This document shows, piece after piece, positions 3,544 through 33,800 of a stretch of 64,000 nt of DNA (the first letter of the stretch is position 1; the number at the start of each line of letters is the position of its first letter). The notes beneath the pieces were generated by a model. It ran no database searches. It saw nothing but the letters and a program-made list of their open reading frames with translations, and was not told the origin of the DNA. The translations under genes and the position numbers were made by a program. This stretch comes from an uncultured Candidatus Saccharibacteria bacterium (lineage in GTDB: Bacteria > Patescibacteriota > Minisyncoccia > Minisyncoccales > GWA2-38-27): NCBI GenBank assembly GCA_964394985.1, contig CAYMZK010000002.1:22349-86348 (forward strand), written 5' to 3'.

Positions 3544-5517
3544 TTAAACTAAGAATGCAACAATAATTAATGCTACAATATTTAATACTTTTATCATTGG
3601 ATTAATGGCTGGACCAGCCGTGTCTTTGTAAGGGTCACCAACCGTATCTCCGGTAACAGCTGCTTGGTGGGCGACTGACCCCTTCCCACCATGAGCTCCT
3701 TCTTCAATATATTTTTTAGCATTATCCCAAGCAGCTCCACCAGTTGTCATTGACAAGGCGACAAAAAGACCTGTAACAATACTTCCGATTAATAATCCTC
3801 CTAAAGCTTCGGGGCCAAGAGTAAAGCCAACAATAATCGGGGCTAGAACCGGGATTAAAGCTGGGATAATCATTTCTTTAATTGAAGCTTTAGTAACGAT
3901 ATCAACACATTTACCATATTCAGCTCTAGTCGTTCCTTCCATTAATCCAGGTATTTCTTTAAATTGCCTTCTAACTTCAGTCACTACTTTGCCAGCCGCC
4001 TTTCCAACCGCACTCATTGCGTAACTAGCGAATAAGTAAGGAAGAAGCCCGCCAATAAAAAGCCCGGTAATAATTTTAGGATTTTCTAACAAAAACCTTA
4101 CTTGCCCGCCTCCATCTAACAGCTCTTGAGCATAGGCAGAAAATAGAACTAAAGCTGCTAGACCGGCTGAAGCAATAGCGTAAGCTTTGGTAACCGCTTT
4201 TGTAGTGTTGCCGACAGCGTCTAGAGCATCAGTTACTTCTCTAACGTTTTCTGGCAATTCTGACATTTCAGCGATACCACCGGCGTTGTCGGTAATTGGA
4301 CCATAAGCGTCAACTCCAACCGCAATACCAGCCATTGAAAGCATTGCCATAACCGCAATGGCAATACCATAAATACCAGCCAAAGAATAACTAAAAATAA
4401 TCCCTAAAGAAATTATAATAATCGGCAAAGCCGTTGATTGTAATCCTACCGCAATGCCAGTAATTATATTAGTAGCATGACCAGTTTCAGAAGAATTAGC
4501 AATACTTCTTACTGGCTTGTACTTTTTAGATGTATAATATTCAGTAATTAAAAACATACCACCAACAACTAAAAGCCCGATAATAGCTGACCAATAGAGG
4601 TTGCGTGGGTTTTCAATATTAAGAGCATTAATTACAGGATAAAAACCAATAGCTGATAATAATGCTGAGGCAATTATTCCTTTATACAATGCCCCCATAA
4701 TGCTTTTCTTTTGACCTAAGCGAACAAAGAAACTTCCAATAATTGAAGCGATAATAGAAATTGCTCCTAGAAACAAAGGCAAAAGAGTTATTGACACATT
4801 ACCCGGAAAAATTAAGTTTCCTAAAATCATTGTAGCAATAATAGTTACTGTATAGGTTTCAAAAATATCAGCAGCCATCCCGGCACAGTCACCAACATTA
4901 TCTCCCACCTGATCGGCGATAACCGCCGGGTTTCGAGGGTCATCTTCAGGAATGCCTTGTTCTACTTTTCCAACTAAATCAGCGCCGACATCAGCAGCCT
5001 TAGTATAAATTCCTCCACCCACTCTAGCAAAAACTGAAATTAAACTGGCTCCAAATCCTAATGCGATTAAAGCCTCTAATTCTTCGGTAGCAAAATAAAA
5101 ACCGGAAACAGCTAACAGCCCCAAACTAACCACCAACAAGCCGGTGACTAATCCTCCCTTAAAGGATAAATCTAAAGCTGGTGCCAAGCCCTTAGTAGCC
5201 GCTTGGGTAACTCTTACATTCGCTCTAGTTGAAACAATCATTCCAATAAAGCCGGATAAAGCTGACAAAATAGCACCGATTAAAAACCCTAAAGCAGTTA
5301 AATGTCCTAAAGTAATCCAAAGTAAAACAAAAAGAAAAATAGAAACAATGCTTACTGTTTTATACTGTCTTTTTAAGTAAGCGATAGCTCCTTCTTGAAT
5401 TGCCCGAGAAATACCGATCATTCTCTCTGAGCCAGAAGGCTGATCTTTAATCTTTTTAATCAAGTAACCGACAAATAATATTGTAATTATAGATACATAT
5501 ATAGGTAAGTACATCAT
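3544..5517 (-). CDS. hppA: Membrane-bound proton/sodium-translocating pyrophosphatase
   Basis: 657 aa polytopic membrane protein with motifs [19 protein letters not shown] and [17 protein letters not shown]. Confidence 0.95.
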
Positions 5518-5546
5518 ATAACTGAATTTTTAATTTTTAATTTTTA

Positions 5547-6740
5547 TTATTTCTCTTCTTTCTTTGCCTCGCCAGAGCTTTTGGCGTCGGCGGATTCTAC
5601 TTCTTTAATTTCTTTTTTTAATTCTTTTTCTGCTTCGTCAGCATTAGCAGCAGTTCTAACATCTATCTTCCAACCAGTTAGTTTGGCTGCCAATCTAACA
5701 TTTTGTCCGTCTTTGCCAATAGCTAATGATAACTGATCTTCCGGAACAATGCAAAGAGCAGTATTCTTTGGAAGAATTCTCACTTCTTCAATTTTGGCAG
5801 GAGAAAGAGCATTAGTTAAATATTCAGCTGGATCTTCTGACCACTCTATAATATCTATTTTTTCTCCGCCAAGCTCATTAATAATAGCCATTACTCTGGT
5901 TCCTCTTTGACCAACAGCACTTCCGATTGGATCAATCCCTTCTTCTTTTGATTCTACAGCTATTTTAGATCTTGAACCGGCCTCTCTAGCAATGGATTTA
6001 ATCTCAACTTGACCCTGAGAAATTTCTGGAACTTCTAATTCAAATAACTTGCTAATTAATTTAGGATAAGCTCTAGACAAAAGAACGATTGGGCCTTTCG
6101 GAGTTTCATCTACTTTAAGGATATAAAACTTTAATCTTTGTCCTGTTTTGTAAAACTCTCCATAAACTTGCTCTTCTCTAGGCATTAATCCTAAGGTTTT
6201 GCCAATATCTACATAAACATTTCTACTCTCAACCCTCTGAACAATTCCAGAAGCAATTTCTCCTTCTTTTGTCTTGTATTCTTCTAACACCATCTCTCTT
6301 TCAGCTTCTCTAATCTTTTGCAAAATAACTTGTTTGGCAGTTTGAGCCGCAATTCTTCCGTAGTCTTCTTTGGGCTTTAAGGGAATCTCTATTTCATCGC
6401 CAATCTTAGCGTTTTTGGCCTCTTCAAGCATTATATGTTTTTCCGGATTAAATCTTGCTTTTTCACTTCCTTCCGGCATTTCCAGCTCTCCTTTTTCTAG
6501 TTTTTCTAGTTCCTCATCGGAATAAATCATGCTTTCATCTACTACTTGCTTTACTTGCCAAAACTTAACTCCGCCTGACTTTTGATCAAGCTTGGCTTTA
6601 ATAATTTGGCCCTTTTCGCCATAATCTTTTTTATAAGCAGCAGCAATAGCTGCTTCAATGCTTTCTGCTATTCTTTCAGCAGATATACCTTTTTCCTCGG
6701 CAATTTGAGAAATAGCGGAAGCAAAATTCTTTAAATCCAT
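5547..6740 (-). CDS. nusA: Transcription termination/antitermination factor NusA
   Basis: 397 aa with NusA N-terminal, S1 and tandem KH regions (GSAVGQRGTRV, AIGKDGQNVRLA). Confidence 0.93.
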   Translation of the reverse strand: MDLKNFASAISQIAEEKGISAERIAESIEAAIAAAYKKDYGEKGQIIKAKLDQKSGGVKFWQVKQVVDESMIYSDEELEKLEKGELEMPEGSEKARFNPEKHIMLEEAKNAKIGDEIEIPLKPKEDYGRIAAQTAKQVILQKIREAEREMVLEEYKTKEGEIASGIVQRVESRNVYVDIGKTLGLMPREEQVYGEFYKTGQRLKFYILKVDETPKGPIVLLSRAYPKLISKLFELEVPEISQGQVEIKSIAREAGSRSKIAVESKEEGIDPIGSAVGQRGTRVMAIINELGGEKIDIIEWSEDPAEYLTNALSPAKIEEVRILPKNTALCIVPEDQLSLAIGKDGQNVRLAAKLTGWKIDVRTAANADEAEKELKKEIKEVESADAKSSGEAKKEEK

Positions 6741-7098: not shown

Positions 7099-7917
7099 TT
7101 AGCTTAGGAATTGTATTAGATCTTCAACTTTTTCTGTATCGATTCTTTGATCGAATGATTTTACGTTGACTTCGTCTTTTTGGGGAGTGCCTTCTTTAAG
7201 AGAAGTACTTACGATTAGACCGTCTGCATATTCCAATAACTCTTTTGCATTTTCTTTGTCCGCACCACTTCCAATTAGAATATGGAAGTCACCGATACTT
7301 GTCCGTACAGCTGACAACTCTTTCATGTCTGGAGCTTCTCCAGTCCATCTTCCTGTTACTATTAAGGCGTCTGATCCACGCTCAATTGCTTCCTTCGCCG
7401 ATTCTTCTATTGGTCTTTTATTCAAAAGTTCTGAATGCTTTACTTGAATATCCGTGAATAAAGCTATATCTTCAGCGTTAATTTCTTTCTGATATTCTAA
7501 AACAGCCTTCGGATCACCCGTAACAACCCCGCAATCAGTTTTTACCTTATCAACAAAAACAGGAATTCTTATAAATTTCGCCCCTATTTTTTTTGCGATG
7601 AAAAGACCTGCTCTATAATCATTCCATAAAACATTCACGCCAATTGGAAGTTTTGTTTCTTGTTTTATTCTCTTCCCTAGAGAAATCATCATATCAACTA
7701 TTTCTGGAGTAGTATTTTCTTGATGAGGGATATCATAATTATTTTCAATTATGATTGCATCCACTCCGCCGTTTTCAAAAGATTTCAAATCTTTTAAAGC
7801 GTTCTCTAATATAACGTCTTCTCCTGGAAAATCTGGATAACCTAAAAGTGGTGCAAAATGGATTACACCTATCGCCACTTTTTTATTATTAAAAATTTTA
7901 TTAAATTTTGTATTCAT
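7099..7917 (-). CDS. BtpA/SgcQ-family TIM-barrel protein
   Basis: 272 aa. The N-terminal VAIGVIHFAPLLGYP...GGVDAIIIEN pattern is typical of the BtpA family. Confidence 0.7.
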   Translation of the reverse strand: MNTKFNKIFNNKKVAIGVIHFAPLLGYPDFPGEDVILENALKDLKSFENGGVDAIIIENNYDIPHQENTTPEIVDMMISLGKRIKQETKLPIGVNVLWNDYRAGLFIAKKIGAKFIRIPVFVDKVKTDCGVVTGDPKAVLEYQKEINAEDIALFTDIQVKHSELLNKRPIEESAKEAIERGSDALIVTGRWTGEAPDMKELSAVRTSIGDFHILIGSGADKENAKELLEYADGLIVSTSLKEGTPQKDEVNVKSFDQRIDTEKVEDLIQFLS

Positions 7918-7995: not shown

Positions 7996-9114
7996 CTAAC
8001 CAGGAAGTGATTCTTTTACTGCGATTATCTTCGCCTTGACTGCACCAGACTTCATAACTTCCTCTGCCATACTGAAACATTTTTTCCAATCTTCCGATCT
8101 TCCGGCGAGACGGAAAAGAAGAGCTGCATTGGCAGAAACCATCTGCCTAACATAACAATTTGATGTCAGGTCTAGAATAGTTTCGGAAAAGACTCCCTTG
8201 CTTATCCCTGACGGTGGAGAAACAGACTCTGGACAAATCGGAGACAGGCCGAAATCTTCGGCCGAGAGATGAAACTCTCTTATCTCTCCATCTTTGAGCT
8301 CAGCTACTTGGGTTCCACCTTCGCAGATAGAGACTTCGTCAATTCCTTCCTCTCGGGCTCCGTCTATAAAGCCCCGGACAAAAAGTCCATGCTTCAAATA
8401 GGTAATCCCTTTTTCGTTGAGAATCTTGTAAGCCTCAGCTACAACTCGCGGAGAGATCAGGTGATTAACACCCAAAACTCGTCGAGTCATTAGGACCGGA
8501 GACAACGGATTAGTTATCGGACCAATGATGTCGTTCATGTGCGGAAGCATTGCGATCTTGTGAGTCTGAAGATGGATTCTCTTGAACCGAGTATCAAGAG
8601 CCTCGGTATACACGAACCCCAACTCTTCGAGACAACGCTCTGCGTTTTCCTTAGAAGGATAAGCATTTATCCCACACATGGTTATGAAGTCCGAGCTTCC
8701 GTGTCTTCCTCCGTCAGCATTAGCCGGCGATCCATGCTTGCACATCGGAATTCCCGCCGTTGCTGCAATAAACGCAGCTATTGTCGAAACGTTAGCCGTC
8801 ACGACAAGATCTCCGCCCATGCCACAGTTATCCATAGCATAGTCCACTTTCGGATTAAGGAAACCGGATTTCGATTCTCCGATATCCGCTTCGAAGATAG
8901 CTGCACAAACACCTGCGATTTGACTTGCTCCATTCAGAGAAAGATAAGTCGCTTTGTTGTGCAGAGCCGAGAGAAGTGCGATGCTCTGAATTTTTGCTAA
9001 CTCATCTCCATTACATCCCACCAGTGCCATCAACCCCAATTCGTAAGCTTCTTCAAAACTTAGTGCGAGGTTTCTGTACGCATGATCTTTCAAGCAGTGT
9101 TTTACGTTCAACAT
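7996..9114 (-). CDS. Glycosyl transferase family 3 protein (anthranilate phosphoribosyltransferase TrpD-like)
   Basis: Motifs DNCGMGGD and KHGS...GSSD resemble TrpD/nucleoside phosphorylase family signatures. The ORF track starts at 9138, but the Met at 9114 follows a strong GGAG Shine-Dalgarno site. Confidence 0.7.
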   Translation of the reverse strand: MLNVKHCLKDHAYRNLALSFEEAYELGLMALVGCNGDELAKIQSIALLSALHNKATYLSLNGASQIAGVCAAIFEADIGESKSGFLNPKVDYAMDNCGMGGDLVVTANVSTIAAFIAATAGIPMCKHGSPANADGGRHGSSDFITMCGINAYPSKENAERCLEELGFVYTEALDTRFKRIHLQTHKIAMLPHMNDIIGPITNPLSPVLMTRRVLGVNHLISPRVVAEAYKILNEKGITYLKHGLFVRGFIDGAREEGIDEVSICEGGTQVAELKDGEIREFHLSAEDFGLSPICPESVSPPSGISKGVFSETILDLTSNCYVRQMVSANAALLFRLAGRSEDWKKCFSMAEEVMKSGAVKAKIIAVKESLPG

Positions 9115-9184
9115 TTTAATCTCCTTTATATCTTGCATTCCTGGTTAGTTTTCAAAGAACAATTGAGAGTTTTTTTATCAACGC

Positions 9185-9440
9185 AATAAAAAAACTTCTC
9201 GTCTCTATTATCTAAAAAATAGATAACAGGGACGAGAAGTCTTCCCGTGGTACCACCCTGGTTTCGCGCAAAGTAAATAAATTTACCGCCCGACACTTAC
9301 TGACTCAATTAAGAAACAGTTATCCTCTGATTACGGAGGAAGCCGAGTTGCCACCCTGTCTGCCGGCAGGCAGATAACAGCAGAAACCATCTCCTCGGGC
9401 CCAACCATCCAAAGCCCTTTGGATGACCCGATTCACAGAT
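9185..9440 (-). promoter_or_regulatory. T-box riboswitch leader (specifier not assigned)
   Basis: Minus strand reads AGGGTGGTACCACGG, which is the T-box consensus with one common variant. It overlaps a terminator CTTCTCGTC...GACGAGAAG plus T7 (9188-9239). The putative promoter is TTGACA-18-TAAAAT at about 9465-9495. Confidence 0.7.
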
Positions 9441-9560
9441 TTTAATAATTTTCAATGTTAATTTAATTTTAGCAAAAAAACAAGCCTCTTGTCAACCCGT
9501 TGACACTGTTGACAATTTTCTTGACAAAAAAATTTATTCAATATACACTTAAATTATAGT

Positions 9561-9697: not shown

Positions 9698-10804
9698 ATG
9701 AATTTAATTGACTTAACAAAAAAACTTATCAACATTCCTAGCTTTGTAGATGAAACCAATAACGAAAGCGAGGTTGGAGATTTTATAATAAATTATCTCC
9801 AAAGCTTTTCTTTTTTAAAGATTTCAAAACAAGAAGTAGAAAAAAAACGCTTTAATATTATTGCAAAAGATAAATACCCTACAAAAGTTCTAATTACCTG
9901 TCACATGGATACTGTTAGGCCTGGTTCTCAATGGAAAGCAAGTCCTCTTAAGCCGGAAATAAAAAATAACAAAATTTACGGACTAGGGTCATGCGATATG
10001 AAGGGAGGGATAGCTTGCATCCTAGATGCTTTAAAGTCTGTACCCAACACAAAGGGACTAGCCCTTCTTTTTTACTGTGATGAAGAGTATGACTTTAAAG
10101 GAGTTAAAAAGTTTATTAAAGAATATTCATATAAGCCAGATATAATAATTTCTCCAGAAGCAACAAATTTAAAAATTATCGACGGCTTTAAGGGAGTTAT
10201 AGAGATATATTTTAAAGTAAGGGGCAAATCGGGACACCCAGCCAGACCAAATGAAGGAACTAACAGCATCGAGAAAAACCAAAAGATTATAAATAGAATT
10301 AAAAGAGAGGTTAATCGCTACAAAGATCCTTTGTTGGGACCTTCTCTTTTTAATATCAGTTATATTTTAGGGGGTCTTCAAATAAAATCAAAAAATAAAG
10401 TTTCTGTAAGCAATAGAGGAAACAACATTCCCGACATTGCCGAAACTGTTATAGAAATAAGAACCTCTGATAATAAGCTAAACGCTAAAAAAATTATCAG
10501 TATTATAAAAGAAGAGACAATTAAAAATAGCCTATCAATTGAGAAAATTGAAATTCGGAGTGATTTAAAGCCAATGAAAACTAGTCGGGAAAAAAATAAA
10601 TTAATTGAAGGCGTAAAATTTGGAAATTTAAAAAAACAGGGCTATTTTGACGGAGAGATAATATCAAAAAAATTCTCTGCACCATTTATTTGCTTTGGAC
10701 CAATCGGAGGAAATGCTCACAATTCAGAAGAGTGGGTTGATATATCAAGCTTGAAGAAAACTAGAAATATTTATAAAGAAATAATAGAAAAAAATTGCAA
10801 ATAA
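9698..10804 (+). CDS. M20-family metallopeptidase (ArgE/DapE-like deacylase)
   Basis: 368 aa with a typical M20 N-terminus (LINIPSF...E) and motifs HMDTV, CDMKGG and DEEY. Confidence 0.8.
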   Translation: MNLIDLTKKLINIPSFVDETNNESEVGDFIINYLQSFSFLKISKQEVEKKRFNIIAKDKYPTKVLITCHMDTVRPGSQWKASPLKPEIKNNKIYGLGSCDMKGGIACILDALKSVPNTKGLALLFYCDEEYDFKGVKKFIKEYSYKPDIIISPEATNLKIIDGFKGVIEIYFKVRGKSGHPARPNEGTNSIEKNQKIINRIKREVNRYKDPLLGPSLFNISYILGGLQIKSKNKVSVSNRGNNIPDIAETVIEIRTSDNKLNAKKIISIIKEETIKNSLSIEKIEIRSDLKPMKTSREKNKLIEGVKFGNLKKQGYFDGEIISKKFSAPFICFGPIGGNAHNSEEWVDISSLKKTRNIYKEIIEKNCK

Positions 10805-11388: not shown

Positions 11389-11411
11389 AAATTAAATTGC
11401 AATGAGCAACG

Positions 11412-11485
11412 GGGGCACGACGGGATTCGAACCCGCGACAACTGGAACCACAATCCAGCACTCTAGCCACTGAGTTACGTGCCCC
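11412..11485 (-). tRNA. tRNA-His (anticodon GTG) with encoded G-1
   Basis: Cloverleaf read manually: acceptor GGGCACG/CGTGCCC, anticodon stem CTGGA/TCCAG, loop TTGTGGT, T-loop TTCGAAT, extra 5' G, discriminator C. Confidence 0.9.
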
Positions 11486-11494
11486 TAATTGACA

Positions 11495-12880
11495 TCACTT
11501 AAGAACTGCCTTTATTCTACTCACCAGCAAAGATTTGTCAATAGCTTCTTGCGATCTATTTTTCATATCACGCAAAGAAACTTGACCACCCTTTTGCTCT
11601 TCAGCGCCCAAAATTATTACCAGGGGCACTTCTTTTTGTGCAGCATAAATGATTTGCTTCTTAAGACTACTTTCACCAAGATACACTTCTGTATTGATCC
11701 CCTCGGAACGAAGTTGACTTGCTATTCGAAAATATTCCGGAACAAGATCAGGATCAATTGTCGCGATCAAAACATCTACCAACGAACCTTTTAATCTCAG
11801 CTTTTCCAATTGAAGCATGGCTGAGAATAAACGATCAACCCCTACCGAAGCGCCAGTTCCAGGAATGTTGCTTCCAGGAATAAATCGATCTGTTAATCCA
11901 TCAAATCGACCACCAGAATAAACGCTACCAATCTCGGGAAGAGCAGTTAATACTGTTTCAAAAACAGGACCAGTATAATAACCTAACCCTCGAGCTACAG
12001 AAAGATCCACTTTCCAGTTTCCAGACGGAATTCCAATAGCTTTAAGATTATCAGCCATCATACTAAGCTCTACGATACCATCTTCGCCAATCTGAACACC
12101 CCTAACTACTTCTTCCGCCTTTAGCAAAACTTCATCACAACACCCATCAATCGTGATAAAAGATAGAATCTTATCAACATTTTCAGGAGAAAGATTGGGA
12201 GCAGGATCCCATTTATTGCATGGGGGTCGAGCAAGTTCCTGAGTCAATTCTTCCAAGCTAATTTTTTCTTTCTTGTCAATAATCCTTATTAGCTCGTCTC
12301 TTTTTTCAGGATCTTCGAGGTCAACAACCTGATTAAGAGCCTCGAAAATCTTTCGATTATTAAACTTGACTAAGAAATCCGAGAAGCCTAGAGCAGTCAT
12401 TACCCTAAACATTATCTCTACAATCTCAGTATCAGCTAATATAGACTTTGATCCGATAATATCTGCATCGAATTGAACAAACTCACGGAATCTTCCAGCC
12501 TGTGCTTTCTCGCCTCGCCAAACCTTCCCAATCTGATACCTCTTGAAAGGTTTTTTAATATCTTGCGGATAAGCAGAAACTACCCGCGACAGAGGGACCG
12601 TAAGATCGAAGCGCAAAGCTAAGTCAATGTCACATTTTTTCGCTGCATCCGAAATATTGTCTAGCCCGCTGACAACTAGTGTTCTATACAAGCTCATATC
12701 GAATGCCTTCTTGTTACCTGTTAACACGTCCAATCTTTCAACAGCAGGAGTATCCAAAGGATCGAAACCAAAGCGCTGATAAACTCCTTCAATTTTCCGA
12801 ATCATCTCCTGCCTAGCAATCATTACTGGCGGAAGATAATCAAGAAAGCCTCCTACTTTTTCAGGCTTAATCCTATTCAT
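11495..12880 (-). CDS. hisS: Histidyl-tRNA synthetase
   Basis: 461 aa class II aaRS with motifs FREFVQFDADIIG and YSGGRFDGL plus a C-terminal anticodon-binding domain. tRNA-His lies 10 nt downstream. Confidence 0.85.
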   Translation of the reverse strand: MNRIKPEKVGGFLDYLPPVMIARQEMIRKIEGVYQRFGFDPLDTPAVERLDVLTGNKKAFDMSLYRTLVVSGLDNISDAAKKCDIDLALRFDLTVPLSRVVSAYPQDIKKPFKRYQIGKVWRGEKAQAGRFREFVQFDADIIGSKSILADTEIVEIMFRVMTALGFSDFLVKFNNRKIFEALNQVVDLEDPEKRDELIRIIDKKEKISLEELTQELARPPCNKWDPAPNLSPENVDKILSFITIDGCCDEVLLKAEEVVRGVQIGEDGIVELSMMADNLKAIGIPSGNWKVDLSVARGLGYYTGPVFETVLTALPEIGSVYSGGRFDGLTDRFIPGSNIPGTGASVGVDRLFSAMLQLEKLRLKGSLVDVLIATIDPDLVPEYFRIASQLRSEGINTEVYLGESSLKKQIIYAAQKEVPLVIILGAEEQKGGQVSLRDMKNRSQEAIDKSLLVSRIKAVLK

Positions 12881-25799: not shown

Positions 25800-27009
25800 A
25801 GCTCCTTTGATCATCGACTGATAGAAGTATTTTAGTTCCCCTATAAGAAGATTTAAAGTTCTTAACCTCAAACTTAATAAATCCTTGTGCACATACATCT
25901 GAAAAATCCAACGACATGTTTTGCAAATTTTGGGCAATCTCTTTCAGTGAAGTCTGGTCCATTTTTTTATCTGTTCCAATATTGAATATGATGTTGTCTC
26001 GACCAGGATCACCGTCAAATATACTAACCTTGCATTCCTTAATGTGCACACTCATTTTTTTAAAAGACTCTATAATCTGGTATGGGAAAACAGTAACGGC
26101 ACCGGAAAGGTTAAATACGTTCTTTTCTCGACCATCTAGAAAAACCTGTGGCAGCGCGGTACCACATTCGCAACTTATATTTTTAATCCGCCCTAAGTCG
26201 CCCATGGAATATCTATAAATTGGAACAATATCAGAATCGTAAACTGTAAATAATAAAGCATGATCCTTATTTGTATCTATTTTAACATAGTCGGGGTTAT
26301 AGTGATACCCTCTCGAAAACTCACATTTATACCCTATAAAAGCTTCGGAAGAAGCATAAGTAGAAAAAGATTTTGCCCCGATTATATTATAAATCTTATC
26401 TCGAATATGGTCGGGCATAAATTCCCCAGACGTAATAACTTTTTCTAATTTTAATTTTAACTCATTCTTTTCCAGGAGAAAAATAAACATGCTCATAAAA
26501 CTTGGTGTTGTTATAATTGTATCTATTTGGTGCTTCTTTATTATAGAAAATAAAGCAATAATTTCGTGCTCATCTTTTAGTAAACCCAGGGGGAAGGCCG
26601 TACTGCCAATTAGCTTTACCGCTTCATATGTAGAAGGTCCTGCCACCCAAGGTCCAAAAGGAAGCAATATTGCTACCTTATTGCGTTTCTTAAGCCCAAT
26701 CTTTTTATAACAGTTGGCTCGATATAAGGCTCTTTTATAAATTTCCTTGATAGAAAGTGGTATCATTTTTGGCTGACCAGTAGTTCCCCCCGAAAAGTAA
26801 AAGAAAGATGCTTTATGTTTGGTATTGCTTAAAAAATCTTTGACATTAGCCCTATCAAAGAGATCTTTATTGGAGGATAAAAGTCTCAACCCATTCTTTC
26901 TAATTTTATTTCTATAATAGGAGGTCTTTAGAACCTTCACTAGCATTTTTAGATTATTAAATCTTTTCTTGCTTACGTTTATAACCTTATTATTTTTTGT
27001 GTCTAACAT
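25789..27009 (-). CDS. Adenylate-forming enzyme (PaaK/F390 synthetase-like), second paralog
   Basis: Motifs FYFSGGTTGQPK and YSMGDLGRIKNISCECG. Confidence 0.75.
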   Translation of the reverse strand: MLDTKNNKVINVSKKRFNNLKMLVKVLKTSYYRNKIRKNGLRLLSSNKDLFDRANVKDFLSNTKHKASFFYFSGGTTGQPKMIPLSIKEIYKRALYRANCYKKIGLKKRNKVAILLPFGPWVAGPSTYEAVKLIGSTAFPLGLLKDEHEIIALFSIIKKHQIDTIITTPSFMSMFIFLLEKNELKLKLEKVITSGEFMPDHIRDKIYNIIGAKSFSTYASSEAFIGYKCEFSRGYHYNPDYVKIDTNKDHALLFTVYDSDIVPIYRYSMGDLGRIKNISCECGTALPQVFLDGREKNVFNLSGAVTVFPYQIIESFKKMSVHIKECKVSIFDGDPGRDNIIFNIGTDKKMDQTSLKEIAQNLQNMSLDFSDVCAQGFIKFEVKNFKSSYRGTKILLSVDDQRSYER

Positions 27010-31772: not shown

Positions 31773-33575
31773 TTAGTTTCTGTATTTTTCTGATATTGCT
31801 TTTTTAATTTTTTTAATAAAAGAGCTTTTGTCTAAAATTTCGATTTTTGAACTTTCTCTTGAACGAATCGCTAAATCATTACTTTTCTTCTCTTTTTCCC
31901 CAATTACAATTATGTAGGGGATTTTTTCTTTTACCGATTTTCTGATTTTATTTCCAACGGTTTCAGGCAAATCGTCCACTTCTGACCTTAGGTCATTGTC
32001 TTTAAATTCCTCGGCGAGTTGATGGCAAAATTTGTTATAATTTTCGTTTACTGGAATTAGCTTAATTTGAATAGGGCACAACCAAACAGGAAAAGCGCCA
32101 ATATAATGTTCTATCAATAATGCTATAAAACGCTCAAAAGATCCAAATAAAGCCCTGTGGATCATATATGGAGATTCATTTTTTCCTTCATTATTAACAA
32201 ACTCCATATTGAACCTTTCCGGTAAATTAAAATCAAACTGCAAAGTGGAACATTGCCATTCTCTGCCCATTACATCCTTTATTTTAAAATCTAATTTAGG
32301 CCCATAAAAAGCCGCTTCTCCTTTTTCTTCTATGTAATTTAATTTTTTATCATTAGCTACTCTTTTAAGAACTTTTTCGGTAAAACCCCATCCCTTGTCA
32401 GAACCTGCATATTTTCCTTTTTCTTTGGAATTACGAAGCGAAAGATACACATTAATATCATCCAGATTAAATCCGAAAGACTTAAAAACAAAAAGAATAA
32501 AATCAATAATTTTTTTAAGCTCTTCTTCAACTTGATCTTTTCTGCATATGATATGAGCATCGTCTTGAGTAAATCCCCTTACTCTCGTTAAGCCGGATAA
32601 CTCCCCCTTCTTCTCAAAACGATAAACAGTCCCACATTCAGCCCATCTAATAGGAAGGTCTCTATATGATTTTGGACTATCTTTATAAATTTGAATATGA
32701 AATGGGCAATTCATTGGTTTTAATAGATACTCCTCTAAATTATTATTCCTCTTCTTGTTCTGAATATCTTTTAAAGATCGACTTATTTCCATAGATGGAA
32801 ACATACTATCACTATAAAAATCCCAATGGCCAGAATTTTCCCATAATGATCTATTGCCAATATGAGGACTGCGTACTAAACTGTATCCATTATTTAAATG
32901 CTCTTTATGCCAAAAATCCTCTATTATTTTCCATAATATCGCTCCCTTAGGATGCCACAACGGAAGTCCGAGACCTACTTTATCGTCAATATGAAATAAG
33001 TCTAGTTCTTTTCCTATTTTTCTGTGATCTCTTTGTAAAGATTCTTCTTTTTTTTCTAAATAATTATTTAAATCTTTCTTTTTTTCAAATGCTAATCCAT
33101 AAATTCTTGTAAGCATTTTTCTTTTTTCATCTCCTTGCCAATAAGCGCCAGCAGTTTTTTCAATTTTAAAAGTATCTTTATTAAGCTCGCCAGTAAATTT
33201 GAGATGAGATTCTTCGCATAAATTATCAACTTCATCTATTTTACAATAACTAACCTTCTTTTTGCCTTTCTGTTTCAACTCATTAATCATCTCTTGTCCA
33301 TAAATTGCATTTCTTTCTTTTTCTTTTTTAAGAGCATCGTCAATATTCATACTAATTTTCTGAATTTTGATATTTTGATTAATCAAATTTTTCATTTCTT
33401 TTTCTATTTTACCTAAATCGTTTCCACTGATTTTTATTTTCCCAAAATCAAAATCACAATAAAAACCATTTTCATTGGTAAAGTTAATTACAAATTTAAC
33501 ACTTGGCCAAATTTTTTTTACTGCTAAACCTAAAATATGTGCAAGGGAGCATCTAATAATATTATTTTTGTTCAT
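31773..33575 (-). CDS. thrS: Threonyl-tRNA synthetase (lacks the N-terminal TGS domain)
   Basis: 600 aa with an N2 editing-type domain (RCSLAHILG..., TAGAYWQGD), a class II core and an anticodon-binding domain. Confidence 0.9.
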   Translation of the reverse strand: MNKNNIIRCSLAHILGLAVKKIWPSVKFVINFTNENGFYCDFDFGKIKISGNDLGKIEKEMKNLINQNIKIQKISMNIDDALKKEKERNAIYGQEMINELKQKGKKKVSYCKIDEVDNLCEESHLKFTGELNKDTFKIEKTAGAYWQGDEKRKMLTRIYGLAFEKKKDLNNYLEKKEESLQRDHRKIGKELDLFHIDDKVGLGLPLWHPKGAILWKIIEDFWHKEHLNNGYSLVRSPHIGNRSLWENSGHWDFYSDSMFPSMEISRSLKDIQNKKRNNNLEEYLLKPMNCPFHIQIYKDSPKSYRDLPIRWAECGTVYRFEKKGELSGLTRVRGFTQDDAHIICRKDQVEEELKKIIDFILFVFKSFGFNLDDINVYLSLRNSKEKGKYAGSDKGWGFTEKVLKRVANDKKLNYIEEKGEAAFYGPKLDFKIKDVMGREWQCSTLQFDFNLPERFNMEFVNNEGKNESPYMIHRALFGSFERFIALLIEHYIGAFPVWLCPIQIKLIPVNENYNKFCHQLAEEFKDNDLRSEVDDLPETVGNKIRKSVKEKIPYIIVIGEKEKKSNDLAIRSRESSKIEILDKSSFIKKIKKAISEKYRN

Positions 33576-33589
33576 ATTATTTAATAATT

Positions 33590-33800
33590 TAAATTAAAAA
33601 AACTCGTTCTAATAATTTAATTTCTTAATTAAATTGCTAGAACGAGTTTTCTCGCGGTTCCATCTAGCTTCCCCAACAAAAGGGCACTTAATTTATTTGA
33701 GCTTAGCTTTAGAGCTATTCCTAAAGTTTTAAATCAAAAGACTTAAAATATGATTGGTGATCATATCAATCACTCAATTATTTTTACAAAGTTTATTATA
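33590..33800 (-). promoter_or_regulatory. T-box leader upstream of thrS
   Basis: Minus strand reads GCTAGATGGAACCGCGAGAAAACTCGTTCTAGC, a T-box/antiterminator with a UGGA bulge. It overlaps terminator ACTCGTTCTA...TAGAACGAGT plus T7 (33596-33647). Confidence 0.6.

Follow-up and report, generated by a model that had tools for sequence, protein, structure and literature searches.

What controls the expression of a TrpD-like/BtpA-like gene pair in a genome of the candidate phyla radiation (CPR) type, and what does this control say about the pair? The question is raised by a stretch of 64,000 nucleotides from an uncultured Candidatus Saccharibacteria bacterium (contig CAYMZK010000002.1; hereafter the window, in which positions are counted from the first letter and minus-strand features are read from the higher to the lower number). 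The original prediction, made from the letters alone, had placed a T-box leader in control of this gene pair. This proposal is backed by a match to the Rfam model RF00230, a covarying Stem I and homologous leaders in other CPR genomes, and the sequence supports positions 9443-9188 of the minus strand as a complete T-box leader ahead of the pair. The leader has a set of conserved and covarying elements, mutually exclusive folds and a match to tRNA-Trp. We consider it very probable (about 0.88) that it would function as a transcription attenuator responding to tRNA-Trp. Beyond the original prediction, the analysis revealed that Stem I is truncated, that a second T-box lies on thrS (33.6 kb) and that the gene pair belongs to a wider module marked by tryptophan signals.

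In a local permissive scan, RF00230 gave a significant match over its whole length (model positions 1-219) at 9445-9225 (51.8 bits, E=2e-10), and the alignment was good for the kink-turn (K-turn), Stem III, the T-box sequence and the antiterminator. When the whole window was scanned at the Rfam gathering thresholds, just a tRNA-His and a tRNA-Arg were reported, and no T-box was among the matches. In folding, the leader region was more stable than all of its shuffles (z=-4.0). The T-box core pattern occurs four times in the window, against 0.37 occurrences expected. The near-match at 26155 was rejected as a T-box because it lies inside an open reading frame (ORF), and that at 9344 because it is Stem II of the present leader. 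The promoter is found as predicted, with TTGACA at 9495-9490, an 18-nt spacer and TAAAAT at 9471-9466 on the minus strand. Its -10 element is moreover extended by TG, and a consensus scan scored it 11/12 with the TG. Transcription would start near 9459. With the nearest co-directional gene 1.9 kb upstream and the adjoining M20 gene divergent, the hairpin described below lies within a 5' untranslated region (UTR) and is not the terminator of another gene.

Stem I, which had not been placed with confidence before, can be folded at 9440-9389 and is defined by the RF00230 alignment together with covariation across 18 leaders. Its base helix (AUC 9440-9438 with GAU 9391-9389) is followed by a K-turn, aligned to that of the model, with the bulge UGU at 9437-9435 and the G.A/A.G pairs at 9434-9433 and 9393-9392. 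Then come a lower helix (9431-9427 with 9399-9395) and an apical hairpin of 8 bp with a GGGC loop (9425-9406). Each of these helices (base, lower and upper) covaries across the 18 leaders; the apical hairpin varies in length and loop sequence among leaders, and no conserved motif is seen in it. The 3' bulge of Stem I, GUUGGG at 9405-9400, holds the specifier. Stem II (9388-9346; GGUUUC 9388-9383 with GCAACU 9351-9346) contains the conserved UGC...AGUG motif and an inserted hairpin specific to the window; 98% of the alignment cells of its helix are paired, and 5 of the 6 pairs have changed on both sides. The internal loop GGUGGCAA (9355-9348), which had been offered as the specifier loop, is the 3' strand of this covarying helix, so that proposal does not hold.

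The rest of the 5' domain follows directly. Stem IIA (9345-9334; CGG 9345-9343 with CCG 9336-9334) is invariant. The IIB pseudoknot pairs the loop UCCU 9340-9337 with AGGA 9326-9323, and all 4 of its pairs have changed on both sides (UCCU/AGGA, GCCC/GGGC, UUCU/AGAA). Between IIA/B and Stem III there is an extra helix specific to this class of leaders (9320-9299; ACUG 9320-9317 with CAGU 9302-9299), which covaries through the variants CUGA/UCAG, UCAA/UUGA, UUGA/UCAA, UCGA/UCGA, CCGA/UCGG and CCGU/ACGG; it is outside the RF00230 consensus and is handled by the model as an insertion. Stem III with its flanking purines occupies 9298-9262 in the RF00230 alignment (AAGUG 9298-9294, hairpin 9293-9264, AA 9263-9262), and relatives show the same pattern. 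The arrangement AAGUG-hairpin-AA fits the RRRNG-Stem III-AA motif described for T-boxes (PMC7778990).

The T-box sequence and antiterminator, also aligned to RF00230, lie at 9259-9228. The sequence AGGGUGGUACCACGG with its UGGU bulge is present at 9259-9245, as had been predicted, the full bulge being UGGUACC (7 nt, 9255-9249), and the conserved T-box sequence AGGGUGGNACCGCG is matched by AGGGUGGUACCACG at 9259-9246. The bulge separates helix A1 (4 bp; AGGG 9259-9256 with CCCU 9231-9228) from helix A2 (7 bp; 9248-9242 with 9238-9232). An intrinsic terminator follows at 9243-9188, with a hairpin at 9242-9192 of -29.6 kcal/mol and a tract of seven U at 9194-9188. The terminator previously described by the arms 9195-9203 and 9231-9239 plus T7 is thus present, although these arms are just the core of a longer hairpin. 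The terminator and the antiterminator share 9242-9228, so that the two folds are mutually exclusive. The ribosome-binding site (RBS; AAGGAG 9126-9121) and the start codon (ATG 9114) are located about 60 nt past the U-tract, and the RBS, 62 nt from it, is unoccluded and outside the switch. This position indicates that the switch acts on transcription and not on access of the ribosome.

Is this leader an isolated case? We fetched 69 genome loci (designated by L numbers) around the TrpD-like gene from CPR bacteria and DPANN archaea. In 17 CPR loci, a strict T-box core motif precedes this gene in the same orientation; together with the window this gave 18 leaders. Their 5' domains were aligned, and an explicit structure was written onto this alignment (A2). 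Standard pairs made up 97.5% of the cells, and 23 of the 29 pairs had changed on both sides. None of 500 shuffles attained the observed values, and sliding the partners by 1-3 columns reduced pairing to 33-57%. A covariance model built from this alignment (R1) detected 9 further leaders outside the training set with 56-110 bits, all upstream of the orthologous operon and each with a variant of the T-box core, a terminator and the same specifier context; in the fetched DPANN archaeal loci, R1 found no leader. Including that of the window, there are therefore 27 leaders, the other 26 being ahead of the orthologous TrpD-like/BtpA-like operon in as many CPR genomes. A1, the 7-nt bulge and A2 can be formed in 27/27 leaders, three of them with short A2 helices read by eye, and in 26/27 an overlapping terminator hairpin of -21 to -38 kcal/mol is followed by at least five U. 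RF00230 gave 38-58 bits to the CPR T-boxes that were scored, five relatives included, and missed two CPR T-boxes entirely; one relative went undetected at E<=1e-3.

Two types of junction are seen at the base of Stem I. The canonical K-turn is restricted to a minority (the window, L027, L064, L014 and L024). Most leaders have a three-way junction, in which a mini-hairpin, often GCC-GCAA-GGC, is inserted between the lower Stem I and the base helix, as in L008 (5735-5847), L010 (5727-5837) and L022 (5097-5218). In L020, L028 and L033 the apical hairpin of Stem I is absent and the specifier lies in a terminal loop.

Which tRNA does the leader read? UGG and the G that follows it are invariant in 27/27 leaders, and the preceding base is U in 22, C in 4 and G in 1. 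The first paired column after the specifier bulge, in the lower helix, covaries. By the rule used in TBDB, the specifier is taken 2-4 nt from the end of the bulge (PMC7778990). This fits UGG at 9403-9401, with the conserved purine G9400 after it. At the variable position of the T-box bulge, 14 leaders have U and the other 13 have C, neither purine being found there, and the tRNA-Trp(CCA) genes in the CPR loci have G73 in 13/13 cases. In TBDB, 46% of Trp T-boxes have U opposite G73, with a mixture of C and U as found here (PMC7778990). The UGGU bulge had been taken to predict a tRNA with A73 or wobble G73; the latter agrees with tRNA-Trp of the relatives and the former is abandoned. Two other frames were considered and rejected: frame -1 (UUG/CUG, Leu), since Leu needs A73 whereas 13 leaders have C, and frame +1 (GGG, Gly), since it would need UGGA, which occurs in 0/27 leaders. 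The discriminator of bacterial tRNA-Gly is U73. The sequences thus support UGG as the specifier and tRNA-Trp as the tRNA, and the frame is backed by the independent tryptophan signals described below.

From this anatomy the following mechanism can be proposed. RNA polymerase would start at the TTGACA/TAAAAT promoter and produce the mRNA leader 9459-9188. The 5' domain, made of the K-turn, the short Stem I, Stem II and IIA/B, would form a pocket in which tRNA-Trp is bound through pairing of its CCA anticodon with UGG 9403-9401. The 3' end of an uncharged tRNA, G73-C-C-A, would then pair with UGGU 9255-9252 and stabilise the weak antiterminator, so that the terminator of -29.6 kcal/mol is blocked and the operon is transcribed. 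A charged tRNA would make no such 3'-end pairing, and transcription would stop at the U-tract 9194-9188. Unlike in characterised transcriptional T-boxes, Stem I has no distal platform here. Binding would presumably draw on Stem II and IIA/B, as it does in the translational T-boxes of actinobacteria, and the extra helix may also contribute. Binding of the tRNA, discrimination of its charge and termination in vivo are the behaviour that we infer for such a leader.

Independent evidence for tryptophan comes from the sister loci. Leader ORFs with tandem Trp codons were found within 400 nt upstream in 13 of the 23 CPR loci that have no T-box, compared with 3.2% of random 400-nt windows (P ~3e-14), and in 1 of the 26 T-box loci, where the match is likely spurious. 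These ORFs have 17-31 codons, contain WW or WWW and are followed by a terminator, which is visible in L001, L002, L004, L009, L025 and L030. They are located at L001 5753-5818, L002 5744-5839, L004 5751-5846 and L009 5711-5830, and further ones are in L013, L025, L029, L030, L041, L045, L052, L065 and L069. Examples of the peptides are MKYNQNIISLNWWRTF (L001), ...NSWWWTLQ... (L004), MNRLSSVNWWWIKM... (L009) and ...QAWWWNF... (L069). T-boxes and leader peptides are known alternatives for the control of trp operons, and this is mirrored at these loci. Sister lineages would thus sense the charging of tRNA-Trp at the same operon by two unrelated mechanisms, a T-box and a leader peptide, and this strongly supports the assignment to Trp. 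In the leader-peptide loci, GGACUUUGC is repeated in the terminator loop and is complementary to GCAAAGUCC just past the Trp codons, which suggests antitermination by invasion of the loop.

Genes of the Trp_repressor family (PF01371, 68-74 bits) are found beside the operon in 7 CPR loci: L004 5465-5749, L005 251-574, L029 ~5491-5748, L035 ~4472-4735, L045 ~255-500, L019 ~9131-9343 and L043 ~8036-8299. Of the 26 tRNA genes across all loci, 16 are for tRNA-Trp (13 in CPR, 3 in DPANN; P<1e-14, a value that overstates independence, the loci being related). The DPANN genes for tRNA-Trp(CCA) are at L047 5837-5912, L059 5749-5819 and L048 3519-3592, and in 2 of these 3 loci the tRNA gene is immediately upstream of the TrpD-like gene on the same strand. 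Apart from tRNA-Trp, only tRNA-His was encountered near the module more than twice: tRNA-His(GUG) is encoded in the window at 11411-11484 (minus strand), and it is also near the module in DPANN L049 (304-379) and L066 (8209-8281). In the window, the ORF next to it (11495-12880, minus strand, 461 aa) may encode a histidyl-tRNA synthetase.

Between the terminator and the RBS of the window lies the motif GUUCUUU (9160-9154, minus strand), which has the same relative position in loci with and without a T-box. In the form GUUCUUU(r)AAAC it follows whatever attenuator the locus has and precedes the RBS of the first gene by 15-45 nt, in the window and in L001, L002, L004-L008, L010, L012, L014, L015, L019, L021, L023, L026, L038, L040, L041, L052, L062 and L063. 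In the leader-peptide loci, the motif comes after a pair of overlapping hairpins (GUUGAUGG...CCACCAGCAC GAA.. GUGCUG). In L005, a TrpR-family gene and the GUUCUUU element are found with neither a T-box nor a Trp leader peptide. The element could be an anti-RBS sequence or a protein-binding site.

What, then, would the switch control? The first gene (7996-9114, minus strand) encodes a TrpD-like family-3 glycosyl/phosphoribosyl-transferase of 372 aa (PF00591, 119.6 bits). Its score against TIGR01245 is 152.1 bits, under the equivalog cutoff of 199.05, and its best matches in the PDB are TrpD structures (E 1e-21). The motifs for phosphoribosyl pyrophosphate (PRPP) and Mg, GMGGD, NVST, KHG and DE, align with those of 1kgz and are invariant in the family alignment (A1). 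However, the protein has KHGSP where TrpD has KHGNR, residues which we take to belong to the acceptor site of TrpD. Judging from its sequence, the protein is a paralog of anthranilate phosphoribosyltransferase and not a bona fide TrpD. Identity within the family is 60-72% in Patescibacteria and 45-55% in DPANN archaea, and the closest named homologs are Patescibacteria proteins with 60-67% identity. The second gene (7099-7917, minus strand) encodes a (beta-alpha)8-barrel protein of the BtpA/SgcQ family with 272 aa (PF03437, 211.9 bits; TIGR00259, 212.9 bits with a cutoff of 153.4); the equivalog cutoff for cyanobacterial BtpA is missed (195 vs 400). It adjoins the TrpD-like gene in nearly all of the 69 loci. 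PDB searches with the protein sequence and with the family profile matched nothing beyond the C-terminal phosphate-binding motif, the profile giving weak matches to TrpA (the best, E 2e-4), BX1 and other phosphate-binding barrels. Assigning a reaction from these matches was rejected, since that motif is generic.

A tblastn search with the E. coli trp enzymes, which covered the window and about 790 kb of related loci, found no homologs of trpA, trpB, trpC/F or trpE. The M20 (ArgE/DapE-like) deacylase gene of the window (9698-10804, plus strand) is divergent and here outside the control of the T-box; its homologs are within or beside the operon in L001, L006, L017, L025, L026, L042, L049, L066 and L067. 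The variable genes of the T-box operons encode an EamA transporter, a low-molecular-weight (LMW)-phosphatase-like protein, a class I glutamine amidotransferase, HAD phosphatases, a short PfkB-like kinase, a kinase-like protein and the M20 deacylase; several of these genes are also present in DPANN loci. Some of the operon genes are fused: LMW-phosphatase-like with TrpD-like in L022 (5353-7170), EamA transporter with LMW-phosphatase-like in L026 (2200-3669) and HAD with kinase-like in L021 (6591-8225). The three fusions suggest that the proteins act together. In L064 (386-2827, Falkowbacteria), a Trp T-box is followed by genes for an amino-acid dehydrogenase of the Glu/Leu/Phe/Val type and a class I/II aminotransferase, and the TrpD-like gene is further downstream; this arrangement hints at a step from 2-oxo acid to amino acid in the regulon.

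On the regulatory evidence, we infer that the module responds to tryptophan starvation, and by analogy with the known T-box regulons it may help to restore the charging of tRNA-Trp. The short-stem Trp T-box, the tandem-Trp peptides, the TrpR-family regulators and the linkage to tRNA-Trp across domains are four independent tryptophan markers that point to the module. Parcubacteria generally have no amino-acid pathways (PMC4508563), and a literature search for BtpA in Patescibacteria, BtpA/TrpD in DPANN and anthranilate phosphoribosyltransferase in CPR returned nothing relevant. We see roughly even odds that the module is an undescribed route of tryptophan (or charged tRNA-Trp) supply in CPR and DPANN, and that CPR T-boxes (Trp, thrS and argH-like) switch co-transcriptionally with no contact to the tRNA elbow.

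Several points weigh against taking the leader as a working attenuator that reads tRNA-Trp. Its 51.8 bits do not reach the RF00230 gathering score of 93 bits; the score is low because Stem I has no distal tRNA-elbow platform, the interior of Stem I being 28 nt long compared with 75 in the model. Such a platform has been reported to be essential in characterised transcriptional T-boxes (PMC7583486), so that co-transcriptional function is not guaranteed. Stem II of the window has one U.C mismatch as well as its insertion, and the structure of the 5' domain was drawn by eye from the same sequences that were used for counting. The low score and the missing platform would also fit a decayed relic of a T-box, or merely a structured 5' UTR with a terminator-like hairpin. 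A relic, however, would not be expected to preserve a covarying pseudoknot and mutually exclusive folds, and all functional elements are kept with compensatory changes in 27 genomes of many CPR lineages, with UGG and UGGY invariant; we therefore regard this explanation as extremely unlikely. The choice of the tRNA is exposed to a different objection. The flanking U9426 and G9400 are both invariant and could pair, which would shorten the bulge and shift the specifier to UUG, and covariation alone cannot fix the frame. In addition, the tRNA-Trp gene of this genome is not within the window, and G73 was taken from relatives. A T-box for tRNA-Leu would present Leu codons in this frame, UUG in 22 leaders and CUG in 4, and the UGGU of the window would pair perfectly with A73, which tRNA-Leu(CAG) of L004 and L015 has. 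It would nevertheless have to tolerate a C.A mismatch in the 13/27 leaders with UGGC, whereas G73 of tRNA-Trp fits 27/27; one leader would carry GUG (Val), whereas UGG is invariant; and CUG and UUG need different isoacceptors. Furthermore, the loci are strongly linked to tRNA-Trp and not to tRNA-Leu, and sister loci have Trp-Trp leader peptides and TrpR-family regulators. Thus, control by tRNA-Leu is very unlikely.

Two further explanations accept the T-box and differ in what it means. The genes may be an ordinary, divergent trpD and a passenger, left over from a canonical tryptophan operon. The first protein has 29-33% identity to the E. coli TrpD domain, TrpD structures are matched with E 1e-21, its name at JGI is anthranilate phosphoribosyltransferase, the PRPP/Mg motifs are kept, and Trp T-boxes are common on trp operons of Firmicutes. 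This explanation must contend with the TIGR01245 score (152 vs 199) and the change from KHGNR to KHGSP, with the absence of trpA, trpB, trpC/F and trpE from the window and the ~790 kb of related loci, with an invariant BtpA-family partner and an accessory set that is fixed but contains no trp gene (HAD, PfkB-like, M20, LMW-phosphatase-like, EamA), with conservation of the pair in DPANN archaea, and with the general lack of amino-acid pathways in Parcubacteria (PMC4508563). It is unlikely but retains some weight. Alternatively, the main control may lie in GUUCUUU and the hairpins preceding it, by occlusion of the RBS or binding of a TrpR-family protein, with the T-box as an auxiliary. The motif occurs in T-box loci, in leader-peptide loci and in loci with neither; UUCUUU could pair with AAAGGA of the window RBS, and L005 has just a TrpR-family gene and the element. 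But complementarity to the RBS is poor in several relatives, and control by GUUCUUU does not conflict with a T-box that works as described. We consider it distinctly unlikely that the T-box is the minor partner.

The leader is not the only T-box in the window. The core near-match at 33653 belongs to a genuine second T-box-type leader (33967-33596, minus strand) upstream of thrS (31773-33575, minus strand), whose product is a threonyl-tRNA synthetase (TIGR00418, 656 bits). It has A1 (CUAGA/UCUAG), the bulge UGGAACC at 33662-33656, A2 (GCGAG/CUCGU) and an overlapping terminator with seven U at 33602-33596, and the Rfam scan of this leader gave no T-box match even at E<=0.01. The UGGA of the bulge predicts U73, which a CPR tRNA-Thr (L019) has, and ACC followed by A in a 5-nt hairpin loop (33758-33756) is the candidate specifier. 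Its Stem I is probably short as well. The thrS leader also holds an ORF of 31 codons (MKSKKAKKEKPVIRLEIGKHTCSTCSGGHK). Other T-boxes were noticed in the related loci. One in L007 (10839-11100, plus strand; RF00230 40.4 bits, bulge UGGU, short Stem I hairpin CCGGA-GUCGCGA-UCCGG) precedes a 502-aa protein of the fumarate-lyase family with the argininosuccinate-lyase signature GSSIMPQKKNP, and one in L010 (~11900-12210, plus strand; bulge UGGC), undetected by Rfam, is ahead of a 99-aa ORF. In L027 (11109-11187, minus strand), ARAGORN reported a tRNA whose anticodon has four bases (tacg) and to which no amino acid is assigned; the region scored 42 bits with the Rfam tRNA model.

These leaders may be of interest in several respects. 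A widespread class of terminator-based T-boxes without the elbow platform of Stem I would offer a natural setting in which to ask what speed and tightness of tRNA binding co-transcriptional switching demands, and it may show what the extra helix and the junction contribute. As the leaders are far under the Rfam gathering score, T-box regulation in CPR is currently invisible to annotation. We found no literature that links T-boxes with CPR/Patescibacteria, and a gap in the searched library is possible. The riboswitch also serves as a functional label, which, taken with the other tryptophan signals, ties one of the best conserved but unexplained enzyme pairs of the reduced CPR and DPANN symbionts to tryptophan and yields a testable hypothesis. 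CPR and DPANN are thought to lack amino-acid biosynthesis, and a tryptophan-supply module, if true, would be an undescribed route.

How does the locus compare with known systems? For the enzymes, the TrpD-like protein has the PRPP/Mg motifs of TrpD (TIGR01245) and belongs to its fold family but is below the cutoff and has altered acceptor-site residues. The assignment of its partner to the BtpA/SgcQ family (TIGR00259) is solid, whereas the known role of BtpA in cyanobacterial photosystem I biogenesis cannot apply in CPR or DPANN. In the sister loci, the tandem-Trp leader ORFs together with their terminators and apparent alternative pairings follow the same logic as ribosome-mediated attenuation at E. 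coli trpL and are functional analogues outside the window. They differ in that their antiterminator appears to pair with the terminator loop (GGACUUUGC) and not with a stem arm.

The leader shows most of the features that define the T-box family and lacks two, the distal platform of Stem I and a score at the Rfam gathering threshold. It resembles the class I Trp T-boxes of Firmicutes, found on trp operons, trpS and B. subtilis rtpA-ycbK, in its UGG followed by a purine, its 7-nt bulge with UGGC or UGGU opposite G73, the competition between antiterminator and terminator, Stem II, the IIA/B pseudoknot and Stem III with its purines. In B. subtilis, an EamA-family transporter (ycbK) is part of a Trp T-box operon, and EamA transporters are likewise in the operons of L012, L020 and L026. 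In contrast to class I, Stem I is here a hairpin of 4-10 bp above the specifier or just a terminal loop, without the platform of AG bulge and distal loop, whose interdigitated T-loops stack on the tRNA elbow; a covarying helix is added, and a three-way junction mostly takes the place of the K-turn. The RF00230 scores are 38-58 bits vs 93, the hosts are CPR bacteria and the targets are not those of the recognised trp pathway.

In the absence of the elbow platform and the presence of Stem II and IIA/B, the leader resembles the class II ileS T-boxes of actinobacteria with an intermediate or ultrashort Stem I (such as those of Mycobacterium tuberculosis and Nocardia farcinica), and the specifier in a terminal loop, as in L020, L028 and L033, is shared with the ultrashort ileS T-boxes. 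According to a 2020 review, a long Stem I with the platform is generally required in transcriptional T-boxes and dispensable in translational ones (PMC7583486), and in actinobacterial T-boxes a short Stem I is compensated by Stem II and IIA/B (PMC7583486, PMC11297988). The class II ileS leaders, however, sequester the Shine-Dalgarno sequence, act on translation and read Ile, whereas the leaders described here have an intrinsic terminator with a U-tract, are matched to Trp and belong to another phylum with other targets.

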